DNA of 64,000 bases from Vermamoeba vermiformis (lineage: Eukaryota): assembly GCA_045837725.1 (NCBI GenBank), contig JBEWZL010000076.1:248001-312000 (forward strand). Reading direction: 5' to 3'. The notes under the pieces are model-generated. The model saw nothing but the letters and a program-made list of their open reading frames with translations. It did not search any database and had not been told where the DNA came from. This document shows positions 3,992-62,887 of this stretch, one piece after another. Position 1 is the first letter of the stretch; the number at the start of each line of letters is the position of its first letter. Position numbers and translations under genes: made by a program.

Positions 3992-6235
<2,244 letters not shown>

Positions 6236-8636: not shown

Positions 8637-10675
8637 TGTCCGCGGGAAAATTTACCCGGTACCGGGAAATTTCATTACGATCAAAAAATTGGCCACGAAC
8701 TACAATTAAACAAATCAATAGTGTCTTTATTATTACTATGACGTACCATAGTATACATAAAAACAATTGGACCTTGTATCGCCACTCCTGTAATAAAATA
8801 AAATTAATAAATTTATCCGTTAAAAATTGCCGAGACAATATTTTGCATTTGAGAATGTCTCTAACAAGAAAGTACACTCACGTACATACGGACCATATTC
8901 GATTGGTCCTCAAGACAAAGGCTGGTGCTCAAGTAAAGTGGCCTGATGAAGTTAAAGGGCCAGAAAATGAAGGGCATCGGCGGCAGATTAGAAACGCTGC
9001 TAAAAATCACCTAATTAGAGATGGGAAGCTACTACATAAAATAACTTTCACTAAGACAATCACTGCACGAAGCATTGATGGTAAAATCGAAAATTTGTAC
9101 CAGATCGAGACTAAAAATAACTACTTACCAGATGAAGGGTGGAGGGAAGTTCCTCATGAGTCCAAGCGGCAGGCTATCCTCGAAAAATTGCCTGGGCCAA
9201 GTGCTTTCCGACTCAAGAGGTGGAGCCGATCGCGCGTTACATCTTCGAACTCTTCTTGAATGAGCTTCAGTTCCCTGAAATACTACAGTCAGATAATGGC
9301 AAATCTTTTTTGGCTAAAATAATGAAGGACTTACTTGCACTGTTTGGAACGAAGCAAAAAAATTCAAGACCGCGCCATCCAAAGACAAATGGCCAAATTG
9401 AGCGATTCAACGGGACCCTGAAGCGAAAAATTAGAGAACACCTCAAAAAAGAACCAAAGGCACCTTGGGCTCATCTGGTGCCGATTGTGATTGCTGAATA
9501 TAACAACACTTACCACAGTACTATTGGTCGCAAGCCTGTTGAAGTCTTTCGCCCGTGCAACATCAATAGCAATGTTGAAGGTATTGTATTCGAACCTATA
9601 TCACCATCAATTAGCTCCACAGAAATTTTACTGACCAGATCGTACCTTAGCGGATCTCGAAGCACAGAAAGCCTTCGCTGAGAAGCTGTTTGCCCAAACT
9701 CGAGAGAGAAATAAGAAAAAGGCCAACGCAACGATTAGACGCCACGAGGCCAAGTACAAGCTACGTGTGTATGTACCTGGTGAGATCGTGTTAGTGGATG
9801 TGGGTAAAAAGACAAAAGTGAAGCAGAAGAGAGACATGGTCAAGGCAATCGTTGTCGAAGCACTTACCAATAACTACTACACAATCGAGTTTGCTGCTGG
9901 GCCAAAGATAGGCGAACAGGAGGACATTAACGGAGATCTGGTCGAACCTCTGCAGAAAAAAACCCAAGTGATGAGCGACCAAGTGCCAGAGAGAAAAGAG
10001 CAGAAGAAGAAGGGTCGAAACGGGAAAAAAATCAACAAGGAGGTCGTTGTTGTGTCGCCAAGGCCGAAATCTGTGCCTGATCAGCAGCATCCTGAAAAAA
10101 AACGGTCAGAGTCGCACTGGTTCAAACAAACTGAAAAAATACTTACCATGGAGCGAGGCAATCGTGGGGCGCGAGCTAAAATATACACTAAACATCAGGG
10201 TTAATGAAGGCGGCAATTGACTACATTGAATATTCAAATCTGAATTTAAAATAATATTTCAGGAATTTAATATCGTGCATTTGCCACACGTATGTACTTA
10301 CATAGCAAATAAATACTAATAAATAATATTCAAATTTTTCTATGGAAGATCTTTGTTTGTGTCCTAAATCCATGCTTCGCTCAACAGTACGGCAAGGAGA
10401 TAACAAAATAACATTGCCTTATTTTGTATTAGGCAATGCAATGGCCGTGATGTGGTCGTCATCGTTAAATAAAGCTATTGAATAAACCGTAAATTTTTAG
10501 CGGATGTGTTTATCAACTTTATTTCTTACCCTGGTAGATTTGGTTACGATCAACCTTGCGCAACGAACAACCCTTTAGTATACTCATTATCAACCAAAGA
10601 ACAAGCTTAGCAGAGGTAGTTCAGGTACAAATTTTTTATATTTTTTAAATGTCCCGGTAATTTTTAGCGCGGACA
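8637..10675 (+). mobile_element. Ginger2/TDD-like DNA transposon (retroviral-type integrase), internally deleted
   Basis: Termini TGTCCGCG..CGCGGACA with imperfect ~29-bp TIRs (8637-8672, 10647-10675). TTTATT is duplicated at 8631-8636 and 10676-10681. Encodes an rve integrase core. Confidence 0.88.
8855..10204 (+). pseudogene. DDE integrase/transposase of the TIR element, frameshifted near 9190
   Basis: FPEILQSDNGKSF, SRPRHPKTNGQIERFNGTLKRKI, EYNNTYHSTIGRKPVEVF and YVPGEIVLV. In-frame GT-AG intron at 9581-9650. The H2C2 finger and first catalytic Asp are not found. Confidence 0.85.
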
Positions 10676-51645: not shown

Positions 51646-54522
51646 ATGTTTGCTAATGGCTTTGAAGAACTCAAGCTATCAATAGAAGTATGTTAATACG
51701 TATACTGCTAAATACTTACTTGATTCTGTTTCAGATTCAAGATCCCGCCGGACTTAGTCTTTATAGCTTCCTTAAGAAAGAAGTAACGGCATAAATTACC
51801 TACGAATCGTATTATATGTCTCATAAATGTGTTTTTAGTTCCTTAAGAACGGCTTAGACGAACAGATCACGTTTGATCCTACACGTTATTATTTCCCAAA
51901 ACCAGCTCTCGATGTAAGCCTAAAACTACGATGAAACCCTGGTTTAATATTCATTATAATAGAATTTGGCTAAATGTTTGTCATATGACCTCACCAAACA
52001 AAACTACGAGACGCTGGATCAAGTCATCTCATTTTTGACGGGAAATCGCGATGTGGAGCAATACGCGGCACTTCACCTTCTTGAAAAATGCGCTAGAGTA
52101 TGTTATTTTTGCTATATAAAGCGCTAAATACCTTTTTCAGGGTTTAAATGGTCAGTTGCGGGATCAAGTTCTTCATCGAGCGTTTGTTTTGACCCACGCT
52201 GAATATCATATGATGGTCAGACTAAAGGCAATCGAATTCATATATGAACTGGCGCAACTGCCTAATGTCAGCTTTGAAAATTGTTTGACCAGCACCGAGA
52301 TCCAAGAACTTTTCCAGAATCATTTACCTCTTATGGAATCATCATTCTACGTCATTAAAAGTCTCCTACAACTCGGAAATTTATTTTACGATCACGTGCC
52401 TGGCTTTATTCGAAGATTTTTGCAGGTACGTAAATGCACTTATAGTAACATCCATTTTTTCAGCGATTACTAAATAAGGAAAATTATTGAAATAATTTTT
52501 TTCAGGCCACTACCAAACATCACGGCAAATTCAATCAGGGGTTTATGAACTTCGCTGAAGTAATCTTTCATTTAATCGATTTGGAACATAAGCAACAATC
52601 AGCCATTGAAGAGTTCGAAGAATATGATATTCCACATTGCATAAGCTATCATAATGAGTTGACTAGTAACTTTGATGTCGCAAGTGAAAATTTATCGAAA
52701 GTTTTCCAAGCTCAAAAGGTAAAAAAAAAAAAAGTACTTAGGGTTAGGGTTAGATTTTTTTTTCTTCGAAGGCTCGTTCTGATTAATACTAATTTCTCAA
52801 TAGCTGTTATCCTCTGGCAAAGGCCTCCTGAAAGCACCACACATTGACAAAATAGCAGACTTGGGCGGCTTGTTGGATCTGCCGTTGGATGTGACAACAC
52901 TGCCGCCAGAGATGCAATTGCACTTGTTTGCAGGGCTCAAACGAGACTATACCAATAACTACGAAAACATTATCAAAGCTATGGAGTATAACATGACCAG
53001 TTCTGCTTCGGACTATTGTAAGCACAATAGGTACAATATTGCTTGCTTATTAACGACTTTATTTAGTTCTTTCGAAACAACTCTTTGATCAATTCCAAGT
53101 GCCACCAACTATAATAGAGAACAATATTAAAGAAACTATTCGCTCGTCATGGCCCGAAGTCAGTCGCGTAAGTTTGGATTCAGCGCTGTTTGACACGTGT
53201 CAAAGTGTCATTTTTCGGTGTCACATCTCACCGTATATTTTTACAGGCAATTATGTTCTGTCCAACATCTGTGGTATTGAATACAAAAGTTAAAAATGAT
53301 GCCAATGACTTAATGATAAAGCGAATGCTAGAACCCTTAGCGATCGAGCAATCATACTCACTAAGGCCAGCAGTAGAATTCATTGAATTAATCAGAATTC
53401 TTGGAATTAATTCGCATGCAAATTTTGATGCCGTATTGCAACATTTCTTGCCCGTGCTTAATGTACAAACTACGGGAACAATAGTTGACACAATCTTGCA
53501 CCAACACTTGCACACGTTGCTGCTGTTATGTCACGGATCGATCTCCGATACAACTGCAAAGCAATTACTGCAAATATGCCTGGCATCTGATTTCGGCTCT
53601 AGTCCCATGTCATCCATGCTAGCTTCCGAACTGTCAATCATTGTCAATTGCAAGTATTTTAAACATCACTCATTATTCGCACATTTAAAGGCTGAAACTA
53701 ACAGAACTTTATACAACCAGCTGTTGCTAGTCTGACGCAGGAAGAAGCAAAAAAAATGCTTTCTAATATCAACACAGGACTACTCGCAAATTCTAACTGG
53801 AACGTAGGTTATTCGAATGATAATCACCTTTGCATAGACCTAATTAGCCTTATTTGGCAATATAGATTGAAGAATCGTTCGAACTCATGCGTTTGATTGG
53901 TCAGCGAAGTCAATTCACAACAACGGAATTTAAGGCGTTGTTAAACCATATCCGAAAGAAAACGGTTTACAACGTGTTCAACGTATTTTCTGGATTTGAA
54001 TCGGTTGTTGGATCACAAGACTATTTAGATATCGTCATCAGCTTCATTCAGCAGGCAAGTATCGTAAAAAAAAACACATCCGCGTTCCACATCTGACTGA
54101 ACCCTTTTTGTAGCTAATTTGCCCCAACGATGATGTGCAATTAGAGTTTATTTTGAAGGGTTTGAACAATTTATTCGATGTTCACAAGAAGAAATCATGC
54201 GTGGAGATGTTTGCAGCAAAGATGGATGTGCTGTTGAACTTGATTGACCCTGCCTTCAGTGAACCATCGCATGAGACCTTATTAGCGTTCTTATACTTTA
54301 TAAGGTACTAATATTATGACTATTACCATATCCGTATTATTGTCTAACGAGCTTTGCAGAAATATATTGCGAACGTGTCCTGACTTGGTTGTACCAGCTA
54401 TTCAACACCATTCAACAGTCCTACGGGTGATTGAACAAGCGCTATCGCCCAATGTAGTAAACCCTACTATGAGGGACTATGCGAATCAAATATCTTCTAT
54501 GTTAAAGTCACAAGCGAAATAA
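51646..54522 (+). CDS. Multi-exon hypothetical alpha-helical (HEAT/ARM-like) protein
   Basis: Series of Leu-rich helical ORFs linked by short GT-AG introns; no family recognised; start uncertain. Confidence 0.55.
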
Positions 54523-54535
54523 ACGGATCTGTACC

Positions 54536-54740
54536 AAAAAAATCGGTGGATGGCAGCGCCATGCGTTTATCTGGCGTGATAACCAACTACACTACCCAGC
54601 CGTAATGGCGTTCACTACTGCCTGCAAATTTGCAGGCAAATAATTACTAACCTGAGGGCTGGGCCTGGCTTCGATCCAGGGACCTCCGGTTTATGAGACC
54701 AACGATGTAACGCATCAGGCAATTGAGCATCCAACAGCCC
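54536..54740 (-). ncRNA. Candidate circularly permuted tRNA(CAT) or permuted tRNA-like Pol III RNA
   Basis: 3' half (54700-54656) GGT CT CAT AA ACCGG AGGTC CCTGG ATCGAAG CCAGG CCCAGCC C precedes 5' half (54601-54573) GGCTGGG TA GTGT AGTTGGTTA TCAC G CC. Perfect 7-bp acceptor stem across the halves; T7 run at 54542-54536. Confidence 0.65.
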
Positions 54741-54884
54741 GCGGAGCAAAATCTAGTGACGGCGCCGCCAAGAGGCGACCCTCGAAATCTCGAGTTTATC
54801 TATATAAGGAAACTTACTCTCATGTCGGGAAAAGCACGAATGAAGAAGGAGCTTTTCTCCTTTGCACAAAAACGTTTTTGGATT

Positions 54885-58800
<3,916 letters not shown>

Positions 58801-58906
58801 ATTTGTGGTCTTTATATACAAATTGGAACTAAATCAAAATTGTTTGAGCTGAACCGAAACACTTTTTTTGCGCTTGCAGAGATCCAATTATTTTTCTTAA
58901 TTCAAC

Positions 58907-59676: not shown

Positions 59677-62887
<3,211 letters not shown>

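Follow-up and report, generated by a model that had tools for sequence, protein, structure and literature searches.

A possible circularly permuted tRNA-Met(CAU) gene lacking a bulge-helix-bulge in eukaryotic nuclear DNA

Permuted tRNA genes, as far as the accounts in a 2014 review (PMC3978253) and a review of August 2026 extend, are found in only a few unicellular algae, a single nucleomorph and a single archaeon, and our own literature search likewise found none in amoebae, as an earlier reading of this DNA from its letters alone (the sequence-only reading) had supposed. The junction types given in Table 1 of the 2014 review are 15/16, 20/21, 37/38, 50/51 and 59/60, and permuted tRNAs with the anticodon CAT are described as recurrent, in red algae, green algae and Thermofilum (PMC3978253). 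The permuted genes of Cyanidioschyzon merolae are described there as having a TATA-like box 50 bp or less upstream, a T run, and no internal terminator (PMC3978253). Maturation of the known permuted tRNAs is tied to a bulge-helix-bulge (BHB), the element said to dominate recognition by splicing endonucleases, and to an endonuclease of this kind that is unusually permissive.

The DNA analysed here is a 64-kb stretch of eukaryotic nuclear DNA (64,000 nucleotides, called the window below). Searching with the GST exon yielded relatives at 77-99% identity. Checking of coordinates against its sequence showed that the minus strand carries, in this order, the 3' part of a tRNA, a spacer and the 5' part of a tRNA; on one and the same strand the 3' part thus precedes the 5' part, and the spacer links the two acceptor ends, which is the arrangement by which a permuted gene is recognised. 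The features, with the basis for each in brackets, are as follows.

54807-54795, minus strand: TATA-like element TTATATAGATAAA (sequence)
54761-54770, minus strand: leader strand TGGCGGCGCC of a predicted 10-bp terminal helix (constrained and free folds)
54716-54741, minus strand: predicted leader hairpin, two stacked 5-bp stems (fold only)
54709-54715, minus strand: leader strand ATGCGTT of a 7-bp helix, partner of trailer AACGCAT (sequence and fold)
54656-54700, minus strand: tRNA 3' part, positions 29-73 (sequence, ARAGORN)
54602-54655, minus strand: intervening sequence of 54 nt, closing the acceptor stem (sequence and fold)
about 54644-54614, minus strand: predicted spacer hairpin around the palindrome (fold)
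54619-54638, minus strand: perfect 20-nt palindrome in the spacer (sequence)
54623-54631, minus strand: 9-mer AAATTTGCA in the spacer, 22-30 nt upstream of G1 of the 5' part (motif count)
54573-54601, minus strand: tRNA 5' part, positions 1-28 (sequence, ARAGORN)
54551-54567, minus strand: trailer AACGCAT plus GGCGCTGCCA, 17 contiguous nt pairable with two leader strands (fold)
54542-54536, minus strand: T7 run, resembling a Pol III-type terminator (sequence)

The 3' part consists of the remaining anticodon stem, the loop CTCATAA (anticodon CAT), the variable loop AGGTC, the T arm CCTGG-ATCGAAG-CCAGG, the acceptor strand CCCAGCC and a discriminator C, and the 5' part consists of the acceptor strand GGCTGGG, U8 A9, the D arm GTGT-AGTTGGTTA-TCAC, G26 and C27 C28. 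Each part is present in a single copy within the 64-kb window. All coordinates of the sequence-only reading agree with the minus-strand sequence, including the palindrome at 54619-54638 and a T7 run at exactly 54542-54536; the 7/7 acceptor pairing that it had proposed is borne out (CCCAGCC/GGCTGGG), and the TATA-like sequence that it had noticed is TTATATAGATAAA at 54807-54795.

When the 3' and 5' parts were joined by script, ARAGORN at default thresholds called a clean cloverleaf, a tRNA-Met(CAT) of 74 nt, in agreement with the earlier proposal that joining would give a perfect anticodon stem. Its acceptor (7/7), anticodon (5/5) and T (5/5) stems are fully paired and its D stem has three standard pairs and a 13:22 T-T mismatch; the conserved nucleotides U8, A14, G15 with C48, G18 G19, A21, G26 with A44, U33, A37, G53, U55 C56, A58 and C61 are all present. 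The frequency of such calls by chance was measured by joining 45 nt to 29 nt across a skipped 54 nt, as at the locus, every 3 nt on both strands of the whole window: ARAGORN called 2 of 42,582, and both were the permuted locus itself in overlapping registers. A scan of the window for permuted tRNAs gave 5 candidate pairs, two of which passed the D-arm test; the second of these, at 102/179 on the plus strand, has A+T-rich acceptor strands and was set aside as probably due to chance.

The native (unjoined) locus is not called as a tRNA by ARAGORN, nor by Rfam at its gathering score; the Rfam tRNA model matches it over positions 10-63 only, with 15.9 bits and an E value of 2.6 (gathering score 29). 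The sole tRNA that either method finds in the native sequence of the window is a tRNA-Pro(AGG) at 60708-60779. An ordinary colinear tRNA gene, or one with an intron at 37/38, was rejected because the tRNA finders do not recognise the native sequence. Running ARAGORN at a low threshold with introns allowed gave 130 calls, which we judged to be noise.

The rejoined tRNA has C73, combines A54 with G1-C72 and holds just two of the three initiator G-C pairs, an identity that is unusual among eukaryotic Met tRNAs. A54 is described as an initiator tRNA feature (PMC3978253). The caveat that this identity is chimeric can be softened: contiguous tRNA(CAT) genes in which an ATCGAAG T loop accompanies a D arm of the TAGCTCAG type occur among the metagenome and viral matches of our pattern search (below), for example L008, L036 and L041 among the metagenome matches and L083 and L086 among the viral ones.

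The TATA-like box and the T7 run, together with the leader-trailer pairing, delimit a unit of about 235 nt. A Pol III-type start, placed from the TATA-like box, would lie near 54778. The box precedes the 3' part by ~95-107 nt, a greater distance than that reported for C. merolae. The long leader contains a T4 run (54751-54748), and there is no T run of four or more between 54747 and 54543. The locus therefore has the upstream TATA-like box, the downstream T stretch and the terminator-free intervening sequence of a permuted gene. Downstream of the tRNA-Pro in the window are T6 and T7 runs, and the 9-mer AAATTTGCA of the spacer also occurs 20-28 nt upstream of that gene. There are 6 copies of AAATTTGCA in the window where 2.67 are expected, and 5 of 100 shuffles reach 6. 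It may be an upstream element of tRNA genes, a promoter role suggested by this one comparison.

The two parts would join at 28/29, or at 26/27 or 27/28 if U-G wobbles are allowed. This position is outside the five junction types of the 2014 review's Table 1; the supplementary tables of the papers cited may list others. All cut pairs were scanned for a 4-bp central helix flanked by 3-nt bulges, those near 54700-54704 and 54573-54577 included. No BHB, strict or relaxed, was found at any cut pair compatible with the tRNA, and in a hand check of junctions 24/25 to 28/29 at most 2 of the 4 central pairs could form. The sequence-only reading had already failed to draw a strict BHB, and the scan confirms this. 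A junction at 28/29 would probably also be too near the tRNA body for the eukaryotic ruler mechanism.

The leader can pair with the trailer through ATGCGTT (54715-54709) with AACGCAT (54567-54561) and TGGATG (54733-54728) with CATCCA (54552-54547), as was previously pointed out, and also through a 10-bp terminal helix that had gone unremarked, between 54761-54770 and trailer 54560-54551 (9 Watson-Crick pairs and 1 G-U). The predicted leader hairpin at 54716-54741 overlaps the alternative TGGATG strand. These helices are present in the sequence, but they are weaker evidence than had been implied, as a perfect helix of at least 7 bp appears in 692 of 5000 dinucleotide shuffles. Colinear helices of 7+6 bp appear in 100 of 5000, and a helix of at least 10 bp with no more than one G-U in 66 of 3000. 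The energy of the leader-trailer duplex is matched or beaten by 142 of 1000 dinucleotide shuffles and so is not significant; it is matched or beaten at 10 of 2000 random genomic places, a strong value that is due mostly to G+C content.

Two contigs that were assembled independently from two environmental metagenomes contain the locus with its parts in the same order: a 151-nt contig (X6) that spans 54552-54702 and a 241-nt contig (X5) that spans 54585-54820. The tRNA parts are constrained in sequence. They have no differences in X6 (74 nt) or in X5 (62 nt), where the 3' part is identical in both contigs and the 5' part is identical throughout in X6 and over 54585-54601 in X5, and the X6 trailer also has none from 54552 onward. 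There are 4 differences in the 47 nt of the sole aligned flank of X6 (54799-54845), with unalignable sequence on both sides, and X5 differs from the window by 6 letters and 2 gap positions over 236 nt. A soil-metagenome relative has a 2-nt insertion beside 54795 and retains TATATA. The one leader difference in X5 (54721) is at an unpaired position in the leader-hairpin model. In the spacer the relatives vary at four sites (54618, 54619, 54620 and 54636); pairing is kept at all of them in minus-strand RNA, and 3 of the 4 would disrupt pairing in plus-strand RNA. All seven substituted sites within the putative transcript are unpaired or pair-keeping in a constrained fold of the minus-strand RNA. 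With relatives as close as these, conservation is not a strong test.

More distant relatives were sought by pattern. The permuted pattern, which was validated on the window, found no permuted ortholog in viral contigs or prokaryotic genome contigs. A relaxed 3'-part pattern gave at least 84 matches at 80 or more loci in metagenome contigs, and 81 of the 84 listed are contiguous tRNA(CAT) genes according to ARAGORN; of the remaining three, two run off the ends of their contigs (L028 and L053) and one, L038, contains an interruption. All 17 viral matches to the same pattern are contiguous. This 3'-part pattern is very general, and among the metagenome and viral matches listed there is neither a permuted nor a divergent ortholog of the locus.

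The reading that we prefer, with a probability of roughly 45%, takes the locus for a circularly permuted tRNA-Met(CAU) gene whose ends are joined in an unorthodox way. A single transcript of about 235 nt would start near 54778, downstream of the TATA-like box, and run to the T7 run. It would fold into the tRNA body, with the 54-nt spacer closing the acceptor stem and the 5' leader pairing with up to 17 nt of the 3' trailer, both of which would emerge from the anticodon stem between 28 and 29. Removal of leader and trailer and ligation of C28 to G29 would then give a circular intermediate, from which RNase P and tRNase Z would remove the spacer by cuts at G1 and behind C73, and the product would receive its CCA and presumably be aminoacylated. 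The canonical BHB cannot be used for this end joining, which would make the step a variant of the pathway not seen before. The missing BHB, a junction outside the published types, the unusual tRNA identity, the distance of the TATA-like box, the T4 run in the leader and the unremarkable duplex energy count against this reading. The sequence-only reading had left the choice between a permuted tRNA that is spliced and a tRNA mimic that is not. Its permuted anatomy, its promoter- and terminator-like frame and the reality of the locus in independent DNA have stood, but splicing is without support from reads or from a BHB. Rather doubtful to us is the wider proposition that a eukaryote not shown to belong to the algal lineages with this trait has a permuted tRNA that is either joined at 28/29 with no BHB, under the guidance of the long leader-trailer helix, into a working Met tRNA, or left unjoined as a two-piece or closed-acceptor mimic that is the eukaryotic counterpart of YrlA.

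That the product is a stable tRNA-mimic RNA which is never rejoined is possible, though we consider it less probable than a joined tRNA. Such an RNA could be the entire Pol III product of ~235 nt, its acceptor stem closed and its 5' and 3' ends paired in a terminal stem, a topology like that of the bacterial YrlA Y RNAs; or it could be two pieces, if RNase P and tRNase Z open the acceptor stem and the leader-trailer helix holds the pieces together. The lack of a BHB at the locus agrees with this, as do transcript ends that can pair over up to 17 trailer nt and finish, like those of many stable Pol III RNAs, in a run of U, and spacer-hairpin changes that are solely pair-preserving in two relatives, which would be unexpected for a sequence that is discarded. 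In the published description the modules of YrlA follow one another as T arm, closed acceptor and D arm, the two ends of the RNA forming a stem like that of an anticodon arm, and the YrlA of M. smegmatis, with its 7-bp acceptor, is cleaved by RNase P (10.1101/312249); permuted rRNAs and tmRNAs are said to function as two pieces (PMC3978253). Two reads of the RNA run X21, one first-mate and one second-mate, both cover about 54547-54602 only; they begin at about G1 and end short of the U run, which matches the piece expected from the 5' part plus trailer. However, these reads are 90-95% alike, lie partly on the stretch, and for that reason may derive from another locus. The RNA would also have a full 7-nt anticodon loop (U33, CAU, A37) and C27 C28 completing the stem, none of which a non-decoding RNA needs. 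Rfam searched at E up to 10 on 54300-55000 gives four matches, among them no Y RNA family and, as a family, only a weak partial tRNA; the strong match to a different RNA family that had been named as a way in which the tRNA interpretation could fail was not seen. Finally, Pfam finds no TROVE/Ro60 domain in 55 open reading frames (53 of the 61 window frames of at least 110 aa and 2 shorter ones; exons are short).

We think it unlikely that the locus is a young non-functional relic, in which a tandem duplication or rearrangement of a tRNA-Met gene was followed by loss of the outer parts, the inner parts being too recent to have decayed. The locus is single copy in the window, has no BHB and gives no evidence of expression in two ordinary cDNA libraries, whose 2 and 0 reads on the stretch, with no joints, are no test either way; the closeness of the relatives leaves room for such an origin, and AAATTTGCA, which is as far upstream of the 5' part as is usual, resembles the promoter region of a former second gene copy. 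Yet in local alignments the leader resembles the 5' part, and the trailer the 3' part, no more than shuffled sequences do (p about 0.98 and 0.22), so the outer parts would have to have been fully replaced while the inner parts stay perfect. The tRNA parts of X6 have 0 changes in 74 nt against 4 in 47 nt in its sole aligned flank, and a relic would not be expected to have leader-trailer complementarity with a T7 run directly after it.

Split tRNAs of Nanoarchaeum are held together by leader-trailer complementarity, and the complementarity at our locus recalls them. Two half-genes, the 3' part transcribed from the TATA-like box and the 5' part from AAATTTGCA in the spacer, could yield RNAs that are joined or annealed in trans through the leader-trailer helices. 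In keeping with this, AAATTTGCA is almost equally far upstream of G1 and of the tRNA-Pro, and the X21 reads start at about G1. But no T run of four or more follows the 3' part to end a first transcript, there is no BHB, the motif comparison rests on one tRNA gene, and the halves are 54 nt apart and not at separate loci. We consider a split tRNA very improbable, with a weak version of it kept possible by the potential internal promoter motif.

An assembly artefact that joined pieces of two ordinary tRNA genes, the misassembly against which the sequence-only reading had warned, is contradicted by the X6 (54552-54702) and X5 (54585-54820) contigs, whose independent assemblies span 3' part, spacer and 5' part in the same swapped order, and by four DNA runs of the source organism that hold 0.54-0.89 of sampled words (one of which may be the window's own source), so that we regard it as next to impossible; nothing that we found speaks for it. 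The small word shares in runs X7-X20 are not taken as evidence of habitat or expression.

If the locus is a conserved permuted Met tRNA gene that lacks a BHB and has its junction within the anticodon stem, it could widen the substrate range of eukaryotic tRNA end-joining; alternatively, it could reveal a tRNA-shaped regulatory RNA in eukaryotes. Since standard tRNA finders miss such genes, censuses of protist tRNAs may be incomplete.

The pieces of the split tRNAs of Nanoarchaeum equitans and Caldivirga are encoded at distant loci with their own promoters, and a BHB is present, whereas the pieces of our locus are 54 nt apart with no terminator between them and no BHB. What these split tRNAs (named in PMC3978253) have in common with the locus is that the pieces come together through complementary flanks. 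The permuted genes of Cyanidioschyzon merolae, prasinophyte green algae, the Bigelowiella nucleomorph and Thermofilum pendens (Soma 2007) are closer. As they are described in PMC3978253, they share with it a 3' part upstream of the 5' part; a spacer whose published range of 1-74 nt accommodates its 54 nt; an upstream TATA-like box and a downstream T run with no terminator between; a leader and trailer that can pair; a CCA that is not encoded; and the anticodon CAT, found in permuted initiator genes of three lineages. The locus differs from these descriptions in that its junction is at 28/29 in the anticodon stem and lacks a BHB, strict or relaxed, with a 4-bp central helix, in that it has a long leader of about 75 nt and a leader-trailer pairing of 17 nt, and in that it is known from DNA anatomy alone and its host is not shown to be an alga.

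Bacterial YrlA, as depicted in 10.1101/312249, shares with the locus the module order of T arm, closed acceptor stem-loop and D arm, and its 5' and 3' ends form a stem that continues from the anticodon-stem position as they do in our predicted fold; the 7-bp acceptor makes the locus RNA a plausible substrate of RNase P. In contrast to the YrlA depicted there, which has none, the locus has a complete anticodon hairpin with CAU, and it is without a Rfam Y RNA match or a Ro60 gene seen among the scanned frames of the window, and its host is a eukaryote.

The position of the interruption has its closest counterparts in two colinear genes. Table 1 of the 2014 review gives the Ser(TGA) tRNA of O. 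lucimarinus an intron at 27/28 with the entry 'no H' (PMC3978253), and the metagenomic tRNA-Met(CAT) gene L038 (L038:1536-1664) is interrupted by about 57 nt at 27/28-28/29. Both share with the locus an interruption of the anticodon stem's 5' strand at 27/28-28/29, but both have an intron in a colinear gene, with no permutation. L038 shares G1-C72 and the ATCGAAG T loop with the locus, although the loop motifs were demanded by the search pattern. Its insert would form a 10-bp helix with short single-stranded linkers to the putative splice sites and no clean BHB, and so resembles the leader-trailer helix of the locus; with its interruption near 28/29, L038 suggests that such a site may be processable somewhere in nature.

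Read on the minus strand, the locus runs in the order TATA-like element, leader, 3′ part, spacer, 5′ part, trailer and T7, and its elements are placed as follows:

Features of the locus and of flanking minus-strand exons (from the sequence, unless Pfam is named)
54807-54795, minus: TATA-like TTATATAGATAAA
54700-54656, minus: tRNA 3′ part, positions 29-73, 45 nt, with three anticodon-stem pairs, loop CTCATAA (anticodon CAT), variable loop AGGTC, T arm CCTGG-ATCGAAG-CCAGG, acceptor strand CCCAGCC and discriminator C
54655-54602, minus: spacer, 54 nt
54619-54638, inside the spacer: perfect 20-nt palindrome
54601-54573, minus: tRNA 5′ part, positions 1-28, 29 nt, with acceptor strand GGCTGGG, U8 A9, a canonical D arm, G26 and C27 C28
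Between the 5′ part and T7, minus: trailer, 30 nt
54542-54536, minus: T7 run
56291-58821, minus: NVL-type AAA ATPase exons (nucleolin-binding domain, AAA domain, AAA lid; Pfam)

When the two parts were joined by their coordinates in a script and given to ARAGORN at default settings, they were called as a 74-nt tRNA-Met(CAT) with perfect acceptor (7/7), anticodon (5/5) and T (5/5) stems and a D stem of three standard pairs plus a 13:22 T-T mismatch. By sequence the tertiary-fold positions are all standard: U8, A14, G15 with C48, G18 G19, A21, G26 with A44, U33, A37, G53, U55 C56, A58 and C61. The native locus gives no tRNA by ARAGORN or by Rfam at gathering score, and tRNA-Pro(AGG) at 60708-60779 is the sole tRNA that either finds in the native window; a permissive Rfam search places tRNA model positions 10-63 on 54716-54664 (15.9 bits, E 2.6) by taking a leader hairpin as D-arm substitute. 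Control joins of the same geometry (45 nt, skip 54, 29 nt), moved along both strands of the window in 3-nt steps, were called tRNA by ARAGORN in 2 of 42,582 cases, both of them the locus in overlapping registers. A scan of the window for permuted tRNAs (T arm and acceptor strand, then the complementary strand and a D arm) listed five pairs, two of which passed the D-arm test: the locus and 102/179 (+), whose acceptor strands are A+T-rich and which we take to be chance. Our preferred reading, with a probability of roughly 0.45, is that the locus functions as a permuted tRNA-Met(CAU) gene, whose spacer RNase P and tRNase Z would cut out and whose C28 and G29 would be joined end to end, an unorthodox and unproven step.

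The sequence-only reading had called the identity of this tRNA chimeric. Among the metagenome and viral matches listed, the ATCGAAG T loop accompanies the TGGCGCAG-type D arm of initiator-type genes in some cases and the TAGCTCAG-type D arm in others, so the mixture of D arm and T loop is by itself not abnormal. The caveat holds for C73, which is unusual in Met tRNA.

Joining C28 to G29 restores the tRNA, and the CGTT at the end of the leader means that a junction at 26/27 or 27/28 would work too, with U-G wobbles. A scan of all cut-site pairs for a bulge-helix-bulge (BHB) with a 4-bp central helix found none at tRNA-compatible junctions, and a hand check of junctions 24/25 to 28/29 gave at most two of four central pairs, in agreement with the earlier remark that no strict BHB could be drawn. 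The BHB is described as the dominant recognition element of splicing endonucleases in the available text of the Soma review (PMC3978253). Ranked second, and in our view doubtful, is that the product would instead be an unjoined tRNA mimic or a two-piece RNA, with a topology resembling that of the bacterial Y RNA YrlA, which carries a tRNA-like module (YrlA as described in 10.1101/312249).

Are the tRNA parts of this putative permuted gene constrained? A 151-nt contig from a hot-spring metagenome (X6) covers 54552-54702 with three differences from the window, all in the spacer hairpin (54618, 54619, 54636), and a 241-nt contig from a soil metagenome (X5) covers 54585-54820 and differs in the spacer (54618 and 54620), in the leader (54721), near the putative 5′ end (54774 and 54775) and by a 2-nt insertion adjoining 54795. 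The tRNA parts are unchanged in both (74 nt covered in X6, 62 nt in X5). The one other X6 contig touching the stretch has 4 differences over the 47 nt that align (54799-54845) and is unlike the window on either side of them; if it shares the organism, neutral divergence would be several-fold above that of the core, which would make 0 changes in 74 nt unlikely (by our own arithmetic a probability of ~0.002 at 8.5% divergence and ~0.1 at 3%). That the locus is a young relic is unlikely. The four spacer variants all preserve pairs in the minus-strand RNA (G-U to A-U once, Watson-Crick to G-U three times), and three of the four would disrupt pairs in a plus-strand RNA, which points to transcription of the minus strand, a weak argument with a chance probability of ~1 in 8. 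The three leader variants lie at unpaired positions in the constrained fold.

On that strand the sequence from 54747 to the T7 is free of T runs of four or longer; a T4 run at 54751-54748 would need read-through. The terminators 3′ of tRNA-Pro are T6 and T7. Leader and trailer had been described as complementary, as expected for a permuted precursor, and the helices do exist, although they are only moderately unusual against shuffles: 692 of 5000 contained a perfect helix of at least 7 bp, 100 of 5000 had the colinear 7+6 bp pair, and the duplex energy of -23.6 kcal/mol was equalled or beaten in 142 of 1000. A fold run from a start near 54778 (the position that the TATA-like box would set) added a 10-bp helix between leader TGGCGGCGCC (54770-54761) and trailer GGCGCTGCCA (54560-54551), which abuts the 7-bp helix on the trailer side, so that 17 consecutive trailer nt are paired (helix of at least 10 bp with at most one G-U: 66 of 3000 shuffles). 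It competes with the TGGATG/CATCCA pairing proposed earlier, and the choice depends on the start site. As to RNA, a cDNA RNA-seq run labelled as the source organism (X23) has 0 reads on the stretch, and a second cDNA run with that label (X21) has one first-mate and one second-mate read, each 90-95% alike, covering about 54547 to 54598-54602 (beginning at about G1 of the 5′ part and stopping six nt short of the U run), the remainder of each being unlike the stretch. These may be a short 5′-part-plus-trailer RNA read into adapter, or similar sequence elsewhere. Neither run lists joints, and such libraries, unsuited to tRNAs, are neutral for splicing. We consider it very improbable that the halves are transcribed separately. 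An assembly artefact is least credible of all, since the X5 and X6 contigs have the same swapped order; four DNA runs labelled as the source organism contain 0.54-0.89 of sampled words, and as one of them is possibly the source of the window their support is not independent.

The window is nuclear DNA of a eukaryote, its exons are short, and Pfam finds B56, Sec23/24, SIR2, an NVL-type AAA ATPase with nucleolin-binding domain, GST, OYE, C2H2 fingers and an integrase core. On one side of the locus are plus-strand frames ending near 53732 and on the other the minus-strand AAA exons from 56291, and tRNA-Pro(AGG) lies between the NVL-type gene and Sec23/24-type exons (61153-62494). The 9-mer AAATTTGCA precedes G1 of the 5′ part by 22-30 nt (54623-54631, minus) and tRNA-Pro(AGG) by 20-28 nt (60799-60807, minus), with six copies in the window against 2.67 expected. 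It may serve tRNA genes of this organism as an upstream element, one that is retained in the spacer. Adjoining the locus upstream on the opposite strand is a weak, sub-threshold match to the C/D-box snoRNA SNORD12 (54828-54917, plus; Rfam 21.7 bits, where the gathering score is 43; E 0.1), probably by chance. Elsewhere, an integrase-core frame (9160-9678, plus; rve_3 E 1.7e-07, rve E 7.8e-05) suggests a remnant of a retroelement or DNA transposon, and frames 1426-1902 and 4514-4885 (both plus), each matching Oxidored_FMN profile positions 24-93 (Old Yellow Enzyme family), suggest tandem paralogues.

A relaxed 3′-part pattern (anticodon loop, variable loop and T loop) run on metagenome contigs gave at least 84 matches in at least 80 loci; among the matches listed, 81 of 84 are colinear tRNA(CAT) genes by ARAGORN and two are cut by contig ends. 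One 1815-nt contig (L038, 1536-1664, plus) holds a putative tRNA-Met(CAT) gene with G1-C72 and an ATCGAAG T loop, interrupted on the 5′ side of the anticodon stem by ~57 nt at 27/28-28/29; neither ARAGORN nor Rfam calls it as it stands, but with the insertion deleted by script it is called by ARAGORN. The insertion folds as a 10-bp hairpin with short single-stranded links to the splice sites and without a clean BHB. This is possibly a related case, a single one whose loop motifs were imposed by the search pattern, and the coincidence of its insertion with the 28/29 junction would be expected under the "duplicated intron-containing gene" model of how permuted genes arose, as given in the accessible part of PMC3978253. 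Table 1 of that review has an Ostreococcus Ser tRNA with an intron at 27/28 of "no H" type. In three other contigs (L040, L048 and L058) initiator-type tRNA(CAT) genes stand in tandem at a spacing of ~258-267 nt, an arrangement of the type from which permuted genes have been proposed to start.

According to the available portions of a 2014 review (PMC3978253) and one of August 2026 (PMC13578239), permuted tRNA genes occur only in some unicellular algae, in a nucleomorph and in archaea, and among the papers listed on permuted tRNA and BHB, represented mostly by titles and abstract openings, there is no amoeba case and no 28/29 junction. The junctions in the accessible text of PMC3978253 are only 15/16, 20/21, 37/38, 50/51 and 59/60, so the locus, with a 28/29 junction and no BHB, departs from the described permuted family in these two features. 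It agrees with the published genes in gene order, cloverleaf and the layout of promoter and terminator, and its spacer of 54 nt falls inside their range of 1-74 nt.
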